Of a stretch of 29,902 bases of DNA, positions 589 through 9,934 are shown in pieces. Positions within the stretch are counted from its first letter, which is position 1. Each line of letters starts with the position of its first letter. The position numbers and the translations under genes were made by a program. The stretch comes from a virus (lineage: Duplodnaviria; Caudoviricetes): IMG/VR virus record IMGVR_UViG_3300017540_000272, positions 1 to 29,902 of that record. The stretch is one strand, 5' to 3'. The notes below the pieces were generated by a model, which saw nothing but the letters and a program-made list of their open reading frames with translations, did not search any database and was not told where the DNA came from.

Positions 589-690
589 ACGATCGCCTAG
601 AATTGGCGCGGAAAGAGGAGGGCCGAGCCAAGCACAACGAGTCTCACAGTCGGACGCAACCGCGTCCGCGTGTCTACCAGGAGACTCGAA

Positions 691-1407
691 ATGCTGCATG
701 CCCTTGCCCGCCTCACGAAACCACACACCGTCACCCTCGAACGCGACGACGGAACGGAAACAACCGGCCACGCGGCACCACTGATACAACAACTCCGAGA
801 CGCGATCTTTGGTGAAGACGGACGCAACGGCGGGGTGGCTGAGTCGCGTGCACGCCTCCCCCTGTCCGCGCCCGCGCTCGACCTGTACCAGTGCATCGAC
901 GACTGGATCACGGAGGTGTGGGTGCAGCGGTTCCAGCGTGTCCCCGGCATCGAACATCCGGAGCACCTACTCGCAGAGTGGGCTGAAGGGCTCGAACCCG
1001 ACACGCTCGTCATCTATACGGTGAAGAAGACTGTGCCAACCACGAAGGGTGTCCGCGTCGAGCCCGAACTGACCACCACCACGGTTGCCGAGTTCATCAC
1101 CATGCTTGCCGAACGGATCGTCGCACTACTGGAGCGACCAACCGTGCAGGTGCCCGTGAAGGGACCATGTCCTGCGCCTGGGTGCTGGGCAACCACGGTG
1201 ACACGCCGGGTCGACGGTGACCTGGTGACTTCCCCCACGCTCGAGTTCACGCGCGAGCAACTCACCGGCGACACTCTGTCGGTGTCGTGCCAGTCGTGCG
1301 GAGCGCACTGGGATCGCACCGAGTTCCGCACGTTCGCGGAAGCGCTCGCAATGACAGAACGTGGCGTTAAACCTCACCAGTTCGAAATGCTGCACGCGGC
1401 CACGTGA
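691..1407 (+). CDS. Conserved actinophage Cys-rich protein with C-terminal Zn-binding motifs; candidate late transcription regulator or antiterminator
   Basis: SD AGGAG at 679-683 precedes ATG 691 (track start is GTG 670). Motifs CPAPGC and CQSC..W. It lies directly before a promoter-terminator-tRNA block. Function is inferred. Confidence 0.65.
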   Translation: MLHALARLTKPHTVTLERDDGTETTGHAAPLIQQLRDAIFGEDGRNGGVAESRARLPLSAPALDLYQCIDDWITEVWVQRFQRVPGIEHPEHLLAEWAEGLEPDTLVIYTVKKTVPTTKGVRVEPELTTTTVAEFITMLAERIVALLERPTVQVPVKGPCPAPGCWATTVTRRVDGDLVTSPTLEFTREQLTGDTLSVSCQSCGAHWDRTEFRTFAEALAMTERGVKPHQFEMLHAAT

Positions 1408-1410
1408 TCA

Positions 1411-1419
1411 TGATAAAAT
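1411..1419 (+). promoter_or_regulatory. Extended -10 promoter (TGnTAAAAT), putative late promoter
   Basis: TGATAAAAT lies just after the stop of 691..1407; the -35 is poor. Confidence 0.55.
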
Positions 1420-1453
1420 CTCAAGCATCCACTACAAGTCTGTAGTTTTTCGG

Positions 1454-1483
1454 GAAGCCTCGGTTCGTTGCCGGGGCTTTTCT
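1454..1483 (+). terminator. Promoter-proximal intrinsic terminator
   Basis: Stem GAAGCCTCGG/CCGGGGCTTT followed by a T-rich tail, preceded by the small hairpin ACTACA-AGTC-TGTAGT (1431-1446). Confidence 0.6.
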
Positions 1484-1489
1484 CATTCT

Positions 1490-1985
1490 TGCCCCGCATG
1501 GCCTGGAATCCTGTGGGGTGACTCTGTACCGCATCTGACGCGGTCACCTCACCCTCGTGTCGCACACCACGACGGTGAGAGCCTGCACGGGATAGGTTGT
1601 TGGCCCGGTGGCAGGCACCAAGCCCCTGATGGTCACCGGCCCGATGGTTGCTACGCGCATCACACCGCAATCGCGGTGAGGGCCAGCATTAGGCGCGAGG
1701 TTCGATTCCTCGCAGGGGCGCGGCAGCGAATGGTCGGCCAACCGGACGCTGTTAGGGAATGGCGGAGTGCCGAAACCCGCGGGTTGTTGTGCCCAACGGC
1801 GGAGGTAACGCGCGCATCAAAAGGCGCAATGCTGACGCTCGACAATGCTCAAATGAGTGAGTCGAGGTTGCTGTTAGCGACGTGGGTAGCTCCACTGAAC
1901 GCGCCGAGTCGTCGCCGACAGGATGCGGCCAGTGAGTTTCATAGGCTTGAAGCAACACTCACTGCGGGGCCTCAAGAACCCCTTC
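1490..1985 (+). ncRNA. Large structured non-coding RNA candidate (GOLLD-like), with an embedded tRNA-like domain
   Basis: No credible ORF. Dense hairpins, including GCGACG...CGTCGC enclosing GTGG-GTAGCT-CCAC, CTCGAC/GTCGAG and CAGTGAGT/ACTCACTG. Adjacent to a tRNA in a phage. The GOLLD resemblance is from recalled motifs and context, not a search. Confidence 0.5.
1622..1720 (+). ncRNA. tRNA-like element (acceptor stem plus T-arm, non-canonical interior)
   Basis: Perfect 7-bp stem GCCCCTG (1622-1628)/CAGGGGC (1713-1719) stacked on T-arm CGAGG-TTCGATT-CCTCG. The interior forms a GGCCC/GGGCC stem with two hairpins instead of D and anticodon arms. Confidence 0.6.
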
Positions 1986-1991
1986 CCACTT

Positions 1992-2064
1992 GTCTCCGTA
2001 GCTCAATTGGTAGAGCGCCGGTCTCCAAAACCGGAGGTTGCAGGTTCGAGCCCTGCCGGATTCG
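1992..2064 (+). tRNA. tRNA-Trp(CCA) with two acceptor-stem mismatches; CCA end not encoded
   Basis: D-arm GCTC-AATTGGTA-GAGC; anticodon arm CCGGT-CTCCAAA-ACCGG (CCA at 2025-2027); T-arm GCAGG-TTCGAGC-CCTGC; discriminator G. Confidence 0.85.
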
Positions 2065-2168
2065 CGAACGCGCTGCGCGTCTATCGAGGCCCGGCTGAGC
2101 CCGCGTATGCGAATCAGCACACATTCTTGCCCGCGCCACTCGATCAGCACACCACACACAACCGCGAG

Positions 2169-2381: not shown

Positions 2382-2405
2382 TCGCTTGTAGTATGTGGAT
2401 ATGCT
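2378..2405 (+). promoter_or_regulatory. Putative sigma-A promoter of the TA operon
   Basis: TTGATC-16 nt-TATGCT upstream of the SD GAGGA. Confidence 0.4.
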
Positions 2406-2421
2406 TGCGAGGACGGCTGCC

Positions 2422-3060
2422 ATGGATGACATTATGAGCATCCCGATCTACTCGCAATCCGAAGTCGCATCGATTCTCGGTGCTCCACAGTCGTCGCTGC
2501 AACGTTGGGCGAGTGGCTACCGGACGACACACGGCACACTGATGCCACCGATCATCACCGCGGAGAGCGGTCGAGGCTTCAAAGTTCCCTTCGTAGGTCT
2601 CGCTGAAGCGTTCATTGTGCGCGCCTTTACGCGTGCCGGAGTCCCGCTGCCGCGCATCCGAGAGACAGTGGAAGTACTCCGCAAGGAGATCGGGCTAGAG
2701 AATGCCTTAGCCAGCGAAAGGCTCCAAACTGACGGGGCCGAGATCTTAATGAATTTCACGGACGGTGACACGCGACTCGTGGTGGTGCGCAACAAGCAGG
2801 CAGCATTCGGGGAAATCGTGAATGCTCATCTCAAGCAGATCGACTACTTCGACGGCTTCGTCGGCCAAGTCCACTTCCCAGATCGGAAGATCTTCGTGGA
2901 CCCCCGAGTCAACTTCGGGCAGCCAACCGTTAAGGACATTGGTGTGCGCGTTTCCGACATAGTGGATCGAGCCCGGGCCGGCGAAGACAGTGCGTCGCTT
3001 GCGCAGGATTTCGGAATGCCAGTGCAATCAGTTCAAGAGCTTCTTCTTACCGCTTCATAA
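2422..3060 (+). CDS. VapB45-like (Rv2018-like) antitoxin: N-terminal HTH plus C-terminal DUF433
   Basis: IYSQSEVASILG..SSLQRW HTH, F.GLAEAFI, and VDPRVNFGQP..IGVRV.DI..R.RAGE...LAQDFG (DUF433 pattern). SD GAGGA precedes ATG 2422. Confidence 0.85.
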   Translation: MDDIMSIPIYSQSEVASILGAPQSSLQRWASGYRTTHGTLMPPIITAESGRGFKVPFVGLAEAFIVRAFTRAGVPLPRIRETVEVLRKEIGLENALASERLQTDGAEILMNFTDGDTRLVVVRNKQAAFGEIVNAHLKQIDYFDGFVGQVHFPDRKIFVDPRVNFGQPTVKDIGVRVSDIVDRARAGEDSASLAQDFGMPVQSVQELLLTAS

Positions 3061-3068
3061 GAGATACC

Positions 3069-3467
3069 TTGACGACATTCTTTATCGACCGGAGCCTCGG
3101 CGGGCAGCTCATTCCGCATGCACTGCGAGCCTCGGGATGGGATGTCGTCACGATGGCAGAGCGCTACGGTCATGACGTTGGCGAGCGGCTTGAGGACCCT
3201 GACTGGATTCGAGATGCATCCGAGAACGGCGAAGCGATTCTCTGCAAAGACAAGATGATCGCGAGGCGTCCTATCGAAGCACGCACCGTGCACATGTGCG
3301 ATGCTCGTGTCTTCGCCATGGGGAGCGGAATTCTGACCGGACAGTCAATGATTGAGCGAATCATCGCTCACGAGAAAAGGATCATGCAATTATGCTCAGC
3401 AAAGGGGCCGTTCGTTGCGCTGATCCACGAAGACAAGGTAGTGCGCACCAAGCTCGGCTACCCATGA
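3069..3467 (+). CDS. VapC45-like PIN-domain toxin
   Basis: FFIDRSLG..L..GWDV, DPDWI and AILCKD acidic motifs typical of this PIN subgroup; immediately downstream of the DUF433 antitoxin. Confidence 0.85.
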   Translation: MTTFFIDRSLGGQLIPHALRASGWDVVTMAERYGHDVGERLEDPDWIRDASENGEAILCKDKMIARRPIEARTVHMCDARVFAMGSGILTGQSMIERIIAHEKRIMQLCSAKGPFVALIHEDKVVRTKLGYP

Positions 3468-9155: not shown

Positions 9156-9203
9156 GTCGTCCCCTTTCACTCAATCGACTAGCGGCCAGCAAACCGCTAC
9201 CAG

Positions 9204-9254
9204 TGGACGGCCACGGACTCGAACCGTGCTCATGGCGCACCATGCGCGCCGCCC
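9204..9254 (-). ncRNA. Mini-tRNA element in the operon leader
   Basis: GGGCGGC/GCCGTCC stem with G3:U wobble, GCGCA-TGG-TGCGC hairpin, CACGG-TTCGAGT-CCGTG T-arm, then A-CTGG. Confidence 0.6.
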
Positions 9255-9470
9255 TAAACGCTCGCACTGCACCTAGCCCGATTGGCCGTGTCTGGCAAGC
9301 GTTGGCAGTCTCTCCACTGCCGTTTCATCCATCCGCTGTTGAGTTGGTGCCATATGGGCGAGGTTCATGCGCTAGACCGTTGGCGGTTATTCATCCGAAC
9401 CGGGATTCTCACCCCGGCCGTTGCTACCGATCCGCTCCGCCTCCGTCTCTCACTCGGTGGCGATGAACCA

Positions 9471-9566
9471 ATCATGTCATGCGGCCCGCATAACCCACAA
9501 GTCATGCGCGCCACATAACCCACCGAAACCCCCCAAACTTCCGCGGAATCATGCGGCAGAAATAAT
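9471..9566 (-). promoter_or_regulatory. Leftward promoter (TTGTGG-18-CATGAT with TGn extension) and three operators TCATGCG-N6-ATAAY
   Basis: Operators at 9477-9494, 9502-9519 and 9549-9566; the first fills the -35/-10 spacer exactly. Confidence 0.7.
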
Positions 9567-9590
9567 TTTCGAAAGTGTACCCGCACCCGG

Positions 9591-9895
9591 GCGTGTCGCG
9601 GCGTGTCGCACCACTCACCAGCGCTCACACCCAGCCACACCCAGCCACCCTCAGGCTCACCCAGACTCGGCCAGACTCGGCGGCTCACGCTCACCACACG
9701 CCACGCGCACCACACGCCACGCCCTCACACACACCACACGACACGAGCGCGGACACACGACAGCATGCGAGCCACGCGCGCACGACGCGCACGACGCGCA
9801 CGACACGAGCGCGCGGACACGAGCCCACACACACGCGGACACACACGCGAGCACACACGCACACACGCGCACGTACACACGCGCACACGCGTCCC
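9591..9895. repeat. Low-complexity CA/CG-rich subterminal tract with short tandem repeats
   Basis: GCGTGTCGC x2, CACACCCAGC x2, CCAGACTCGG x2, GCACGACRC x3; a perfect 42-nt purine-pyrimidine alternation at 9851-9892. Confidence 0.85.
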
Positions 9896-9934
9896 ACTAA
9901 CCCCCCACAGGGGAACCCCCCGCCCCCCGCCAAA

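Follow-up and report, generated by a model that had tools for sequence, protein, structure and literature searches.

Locus organization

The window analyzed here, the whole 29,902-nt stretch of record IMGVR_UViG_3300017540_000272, is an IMG/VR provirus carrying terminase, portal, capsid and tape-measure genes. Because its large terminase is 76–78% identical to those of four Leucobacter prophages, and the sole named homologue of the DUF7341 gene upstream of the interval under study comes from Leucobacter, the window is probably a Leucobacter-type soil prophage, with Leucobacter or a close relative as its host. The DUF7341 gene is followed by a −10-like element, a terminator-like hairpin, the interval itself, a tRNA-Trp gene, a PIN-type toxin-antitoxin pair and an HNH gene, with the packaging genes further on. 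The features up to the tRNA are as follows:

670–1407, plus strand: DUF7341/DUF7340 gene, the last protein gene ahead of the putative late promoter, whose position alone suggests a regulatory role
1411–1419, plus strand: extended −10-like element (TG-n-TAAAAT), a candidate late promoter read by eye
1452–1482, plus strand: intrinsic-terminator-like hairpin directly 5′ of the candidate RNA, whose synthesis would need read-through
1486–1978, plus strand: candidate structured non-coding RNA, from the predicted fold, with homology breaks at 1470 and 1988 in run X6
1992–2065, plus strand: tRNA-Trp(CCA), co-oriented and 14 nt downstream of the RNA, whose 3′ end would be fixed by 5′ processing of the tRNA

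We take the late transcript to begin at the slot that the interval occupies. The order of gene, promoter, terminator and cargo is seen in several of 18 distant DUF7341 loci, of which four contain tRNAs called by ARAGORN, and inspection by eye found a similar hairpin with a U-run 3′ of the DUF7341 genes in L183, L184, L269, L270 and L271. A consensus promoter scan returned no promoters, the candidate element at 1411–1419 included. Modeling of the DUF7341 protein (pLDDT 76) matched no solved fold, phage proteins being the only matches; homologues of this protein (P0002–P0008) are 60–70% identical to it. A literature search found no paper on DUF7341 or on RAGATH-15, an RNA considered below.

The tRNA-Trp directly downstream bears out the tRNA adjacency noted in the original prediction, and a near-identical tRNA-Trp occupies the same slot in a Leucobacter prophage (L186, 308–381). 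Both tRNAs carry the same two acceptor-stem mismatches, at pairs 2 and 3, and CCA is not encoded in that of the window. Only ~130 nt of non-coding room lies 3′ of the tRNA. A closed hairpin unit at 2117–2182, kept in runs X6, X11 and X14, has 11 bases at its start in common with the RNA (1484–1494 = 2122–2132) and is possibly a small sister element. At 2395–3467, in the late cargo slot, a DUF433/HTH antitoxin-like gene and then a PIN_10 gene form a VapBC-type toxin-antitoxin pair.

Further along the window, ARAGORN called a tmRNA on the minus strand at 9203–9650, which we rejected as it is without Rfam support; on the same strand, 9203–9500 is a non-coding leader with a T-arm mimic at its end. 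In related Leucobacter prophages (L082–L085, L189), this same reverse operon contains minihelices of ~47 nt that consist of an acceptor and a T-arm. Low-complexity purine-pyrimidine repeats at 9560–9900 immediately precede the small terminase gene and probably lie close to the end of the genome.

Coding potential of the interval

The original prediction described the interval as poor in open reading frames. A 245-aa frame (1361–2098) does cross it, but this frame is not supported as a gene. It runs through the tRNA-Trp as well as the interval, matches no Pfam or PHROG family, and in a relative from run X6 loses its reading frame through a deletion of 4 nt. Its GC content at codon position 2 is 0.60, versus 0.43–0.49 in four real genes, a dip shown by four of the five tested genes and missing also in the real HNH gene (0.58). 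On the grounds of family match, codon-position GC, tRNA overlap and frameshift, we treated the interval as non-coding.

A predicted fold closed end to end

The best bounds of the RNA are 1486–1978, which in the models likely form a many-armed domain of ~490 nt, closed end to end. Folding of the whole interval was more stable than that of shuffled sequences (z −3.07 on the plus strand, −2.39 on the minus strand), and 1486–1978 gave z −3.66, whereas 150-nt pieces exceeded chance weakly (plus-strand z −0.3 to −1.3). Its GC content is 62%. The predicted arms, in addition to an embedded pseudo-tRNA, are as follows:

1486–1524, plus strand: 5′ strands of three stacked closing helices, main-stem pair probabilities (P) 0.88–0.97
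1528–1544, 1548–1579 and 1581–1616, plus strand: three hairpins off the central junction, P 0.69–1.00
1622–1720, plus strand: embedded pseudo-tRNA, with a 7-bp acceptor-like stem, a T-arm and an altered anticodon position
1624–1757, plus strand: long arm of the minimum-energy fold, P 0.96–1.00 for most stems
1810–1827, plus strand: short GC hairpin with a UCAAAAG loop (loop 1817–1823), P 0.61
1831–1895, plus strand: long arm (1831–1878) and GTGG-GTAGCT-CCAC hairpin (1882–1895), whose loop contains the palindrome AGCU
1932–1962, plus strand: 3′ hairpin of the closing three-way junction, P 0.76–0.91

The closing helices are predicted to pair 1486–1498 with 1963–1978, 1499–1503 with 1927–1931, and 1508–1524 with 1906–1924. 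Between the first 40 and the last 80 nt, 29 pairs have P > 0.8, compared with a shuffle mean of 6.9, and none of 60 dinucleotide shuffles matched this closure. As the bounds were picked post hoc, after inspection, we applied a harder control, folding 114 other 493-nt windows of this phage: five had more pairs at P > 0.9 and two had equal numbers, and four had more long-range pairs, with two again equal. Thermodynamic modeling alone therefore ranks the interval in the top few percent of the phage without setting it apart.

Within the closed domain, the three hairpins at 1528–1616 are covered by an 85%-identical homologue piece (1470–1591), and the 3′ domain (1761–1905) is less certain. The prediction contains several junctions, and its pseudoknot candidates, drawn from a single sequence, are one of 7 bp and a few of 5–6 bp. 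The 7-bp candidate, between strand 1828–1834 and the loop at 1684–1690, is within chance for this length.

The complementary segments named in the original prediction are all present at about the proposed places, and most are plausible in the whole-RNA ensemble: CTCGAC/GTCGAG (P 0.5–1.0), GTGG/CCAC (P 0.4), GGCGC(1823)/GCGCC(1901) (P 0.23) and GCTGAC/GTTAGC (P 0.2). Imposing these four together places the fold 2.1 kcal/mol above the minimum. The proposed GCGACG/CGTCGC helix, by contrast, was rejected (P 0.0, at a cost of ~9 kcal/mol), because 1906–1924 pairs instead with 1508–1524. The original prediction had overlooked the features with the best support, namely the helices that close the ends and the pseudo-tRNA within the fold.

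An embedded pseudo-tRNA

The acceptor-like stem of the pseudo-tRNA is a perfect 7 bp (1622–1628/1713–1719; the chance of such a partner is 0.04), and its canonical T-arm (1695–1713) sits at the tip of the long arm 1624–1757, in a four-way junction. The anticodon position holds a hairpin with a 4-nt rather than a 7-nt loop, and the D region is over-long; 1622–1720 does not qualify as a cloverleaf tRNA (RF00005) and was called by neither ARAGORN nor Rfam. Against the tRNA-Sec model it scores 16.5 bits (gathering 47), and the best non-self match of a covariance model of this arm (R1) is a phage tRNA-Tyr (E 0.43), a weak hint in the sequence at a class II tRNA origin. The long-arm and acceptor-stem folds are mutually exclusive, the long arm being 7.2 kcal/mol lower when tertiary contacts are ignored.

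Pseudo-tRNAs of this kind have parallels in the tRNA islands of related actinophage loci, where they likewise combine an acceptor stem and canonical T-arm with a non-functional anticodon region and sit in the late leader beside true tRNAs. Unlike those, the mimic here forms part of a predicted closed fold of 490 nt, in which an alternative arm can hide the acceptor strand. The species I and II RNAs of phage T4 are comparable to such island pseudo-tRNAs. T-arm mimics are also common loose parts in related phages, which counts against the interval being one RNA, and a 22-nt stretch over the T-arm (1694–1715) is identical in an unrelated non-coding unit of two Leucobacter genomes (L476, L477). 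That unit, on the minus strand at ~1350–1680, is ~300 nt long, rich in hairpins and without an Rfam match. In Streptomyces and Kitasatospora prophages (L098–L108), tRNA islands hold up to six tRNAs and many pseudo-tRNAs in which the T-arm is kept and the anticodon arm altered.

Comparison with GOLLD, ROOL and RAGATH-15

GOLLD is 700 to >800 nt long with separate 5′ and 3′ domains (PMC12286853, PMC12990946), the 3′ domain being described as universally conserved (PMC12286853); it is located close to tRNAs, increases in the course of lysis and in some cases contains a pseudo-tRNA (PMC6582537, PMC12286853, PMC12990946). GOLLD and ROOL are characterized as RNA-only multimeric cages whose expression rises with lysis. 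ROOL has an average length of 581 nt (PMC5737381, PMC12286853).

The Rfam scan suggested in the original prediction gave no match for either family. The GOLLD model (RF02032; gathering 150 bits) did not match the interval at gathering or at E ≤ 10, and a control GOLLD, L303, scored 303.4 bits in the same scan, although this control is AT-rich (38% GC), unlike the GC-rich interval. The same model found no match in 151 phylum and 151 Mycobacterium-genus genomes, a result that says nothing on the interval. The ROOL model (RF03087; gathering 99.1 bits) did not match the interval at E ≤ 10, in a scan that had a GOLLD as its positive control. The RAGATH-15 model (RF03150; gathering 199.5 bits) gave no score on the window, with controls L119 and L148 scoring 217 and 227 bits. 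In view of these missing covariance-model scores, we rejected membership of the interval in GOLLD, ROOL or RAGATH-15.

Individual motifs gave a similar picture. Using the GOLLD 3′ core motifs (GAAAGG, the GAGUA bulged-G strands, the CGCAAG loop, GUGGA, AUAAUC and the terminal CUCAnC hairpin), we found that seven of nine consensus motifs are absent from the interval and that all seven are present in L303. The interval does contain TCAAAAG (1817) and a CTCAnC 6-mer (1548), the latter short, degenerate and far from its GOLLD position, and blastn against full-length GOLLD gave a best E of 17. The GGTAGCTCC motif, initially taken as a likeness to the GOLLD 3′ domain, is absent from both the Rfam GOLLD consensus and L303; it forms instead the hairpin with which RAGATH-15 begins, and is present again in hairpin form in tRNA islands of Streptomyces prophages (L103, L106).

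What the interval shares with GOLLD is a prophage location beside a tRNA, a large multi-branched predicted architecture, an embedded pseudo-tRNA (as in mycobacterial GOLLD) and a UCAAAAG sequence in a predicted hairpin loop. At ~490 nt, it is, as first proposed, shorter than the 700–833 nt of GOLLD, and it differs further in drawing no model score, lacking the 3′ core motifs and having ends predicted to pair into one closed domain. Its pseudo-tRNA lies inside a predicted long arm rather than in a loose linker, and GOLLD forms multimers, for which the interval is a candidate. With ROOL it has in common a similar size class, the prophage and tRNA context, 5′ and 3′ ends predicted to interlock and the UCAAAAG loop; unlike ROOL, it has no model score, a GC content of 62% and a pseudo-tRNA with a T-arm. 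RAGATH-15 shares the GGUAGCUCC hairpin motif with the interval, its stem register being off by one base, and 40–70 nt upstream of it L119 and L148 carry a UCAAAAG hairpin, in the order seen here too (the pattern that retrieved these loci required that order); the remaining 285 positions of RAGATH-15 are unrelated to the interval.

The UCAAAAG loop is thus the one GOLLD- or ROOL-like detail that we found, and it is distinct from the GGTAGCTCC motif. In Supplementary Tables 2 and 4 of PMC12286853, such loops supply A-minor adenosines to the GOLLD intermolecular bridges B6 and B10 and the ROOL bridge B4; we located the bridge adenosines by our own count on the sequences printed there, checked against other listed residues. 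UCAAAAG hairpins with stems of at least 4 bp are rare: 3.4 Mb of DNA from related phages contains four of them (0.0006 per 500 nt). The one here has a 4-bp stem and one A more than its GOLLD counterpart, and in a fold just 2 kcal/mol higher it is open. In a local fold of 1795–1905, and only there, it falls within a P13-like closing helix.

Conservation and distribution

The stretch or part of it occurs in 20 of 21 listed runs, from 15 studies, of which we compared four (X6, X10, X11 and X14). Among near-relative pieces, the interval is 99–100% identical, versus 92–94% for the neighboring gene. In X6, there are 4 substitutions in 580 positions of the RNA against 23 in 392 of the upstream gene on a separate contig (Fisher p = 2e-6), and in X11, 0 of 199 against 16 of 208 (Fisher p = 2e-5); X10 shows no differences over 151 positions of the RNA, and X14 covers only the tRNA and the sequence beyond. 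The pieces are shallow (depth 2–5), unlinked and possibly from different phages, so the high identity is accounted for just as well by a cassette that spread recently.

One X6 contig matches 1405–1988, with the 4 substitutions and a 4-nt deletion, and continues with 123 nt unlike the window, indicating that the tRNA-Trp is replaced there. On a second X6 contig (85% identical), 201 bases are unlike the window before the match sets in at 1470 and extends to near the contig's own end. The X6 changes listed (two of the four substitutions and the deletion) fit the predicted fold: T1706C is the variable T-loop base and G1723A is unpaired (P 0.97), the chance of both falling on unpaired bases being ~0.1, and the deletion replaces a hairpin by a 4-bp stem capped with a GCAA tetraloop while leaving the remaining fold unchanged.

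Wider searches returned no diverged full-length relative. With blastn, INPHARED gave three short matches and PLSDB none; 401 family genomes gave five matches, all short and judged to be chance, 401 order genomes gave none, and 86 genus genomes gave two, over the T-arm only. IMG/VR pattern scans recovered chance matches, tRNAs, one T-arm mimic (L018) and RAGATH-15, but no relative. Loci anchored on DUF7341 comprised two identical copies of the source and the 18 distant loci, none with a diverged full-length relative. Terminase-anchored loci (28 + 80) likewise held none, and nhmmer reached a best E of 0.74 over 126 related loci. Three single-sequence covariance models, run on 94 sources and 86 genomes, gave best non-self E values of 0.03–0.6, to tRNA-Tyr or coding DNA. 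A search of the literature available to us found no description of RNA 1486–1978, which is not proof of absence. Five motif terms were absent from the six supplementary files of PMC10690425 that the search covered, and the RNA may be among the 10,000 candidates of that study.

Taken with the end closure, the contrast in conservation supports the central idea of the original prediction, a structured phage RNA beside a tRNA. The interval is probably a real, uncatalogued and narrowly spread structured RNA of ~490 nt. Between the reduced GOLLD and the new class originally offered, a new class is more likely; a reduced GOLLD is poorly supported, given the missing model score and motifs.

Proposed function and alternative readings

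Our preferred reading, to which we give about an even chance, is that 1486–1978 is one discrete, end-closed and many-armed non-coding RNA that displays a broken tRNA and would act as a structural RNA, free of protein, late in the lytic cycle, in the manner of GOLLD and ROOL. From its location, the T-arm with its acceptor-like stem, the conservation contrast and the negative family searches, we infer, by modeling and analogy, how it may be transcribed, processed, folded and self-associated. Transcription would start at a putative late promoter near 1411–1427 and read through the terminator at 1452–1482. RNase P cleaves at the 5′ end of tRNAs during their processing, and the same cut at tRNA-Trp would release the 3′ end of the RNA. 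The long arm at 1624–1757 would hide the acceptor strand, so that the pseudo-tRNA would not be cut out and its elbow would be shown on the scaffold, where its likeliest use would be to bind or divert host proteins that recognize tRNAs. Self-association could proceed through the UCAAAAG loop, as an A-minor donor, and the AGCU loop. By analogy, such GOLLD- or ROOL-like working is plausible for this RNA.

A stronger version, which we consider rather unlikely, would make the interval the representative of a new class of compact (~490 nt), self-assembling ornate RNAs of actinobacterial prophages, using the GOLLD/ROOL A-minor loop without sequence kinship and carrying a two-state pseudo-tRNA. One fold would lock the acceptor strand in the long arm and present the elbow on a multimeric scaffold, and the other would free a top-half tRNA mimic for release by RNase P.

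Neither GOLLD nor ROOL has a known function, and the interval would add a third, smaller, GC-rich RNA of the same kind of locus with a UCAAAAG bridge loop. With such an RNA one could test whether the RNAs of phage tRNA islands generally self-assemble in a cage-like way, a point raised by PMC12286853. Its pseudo-tRNA with two exclusive folds would offer a direct test of whether such RNAs store or display tRNA shapes, an idea found in PMC12990946, and its length of 490 nt makes transcription and probing easy.

Possible, though on the doubtful side, is that no 490-nt unit exists, the interval being a mosaic put together from small, unconnected components of a tRNA island (an eroded class II tRNA and stray hairpins) and processed into pieces, with the T-arm mimic as the working part, either as a processing signal or as a small decoy. 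In this slot, other DUF7341- or terminase-related loci have tRNAs (as in the four DUF7341 loci with ARAGORN calls), mimics of the T-arm and short, closed units of hairpins, and the order of these varies. The sharing of the T-arm stretch with an otherwise unrelated Leucobacter unit, the recurrence of the GGTAGCTCC hairpin in L103, L106 and RAGATH-15, and the perfect acceptor stem of the pseudo-tRNA fit such a mosaic as well. Three stacked end-to-end helices, homology whose limits fall close to the predicted ends, and near-identity over the whole unit rather than the T-arm alone argue instead for a single RNA, as does the energetic cost of the acceptor fold, with tertiary contacts again ignored. 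If the interval is only a mosaic of island parts, it would be a modest addition to phage tRNA-island biology.

An improbable alternative is a cis-acting leader of the late operon, which would aid antitermination on the nascent transcript or protect the processed late mRNA, with no free RNA formed. RNAs of the put/nut type bring about antitermination by folding on the nascent transcript, and the interval is the first element past the candidate late promoter and terminator, a position in which L269, L270 and L271 have closed hairpin units 3′ of their terminators. However, the interval sits after the terminator, not before it, and processing of tRNA-Trp would sever it from the mRNA. L183, L272 and others go from terminator to protein gene with little room between, so that the late operon can do without the interval.

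More improbable still is that there is no functional RNA, and that a GC-rich spacer folds by chance or the 245-aa frame is a real gene. Of 114 other windows, mostly coding, five give more confident pairs, local z-scores are weak and an open frame is present; against this stand an identity above that of a real gene in two studies, a canonical T-arm with an acceptor partner, and a frame that has no family match or codon pattern and is shifted by the deletion in a relative. Largely refuted and hardly credible is a GOLLD that has diverged strongly and been shortened, with its P13/P14 region kept and the remaining 3′ domain replaced: the local fold of 1795–1905 sets the UCAAAAG hairpin in a closing helix with a distance-pairing strand, as in GOLLD P13/P14, and a pseudo-tRNA is embedded in a phage tRNA context, but the Rfam model gives no score at E ≤ 10 against 303 bits for the control, most GOLLD motifs and any convincing blastn match are lacking, and the 3′ domain is described in PMC12286853 as universally conserved.

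Other candidate RNAs

In Microbacteriaceae prophages L270 (2517–2653) and L271 (reverse, ~2631–2782), a related end-closed unit of 137–152 nt lies directly 3′ of the late terminator and is a candidate for a separate small RNA family. Just upstream of where the Rfam model starts, L119 (980–1062) and L148 have both a long hairpin and one with a UCAAAAG loop, and the RAGATH-15 RNA may, judging from these sequences, be longer than its model.
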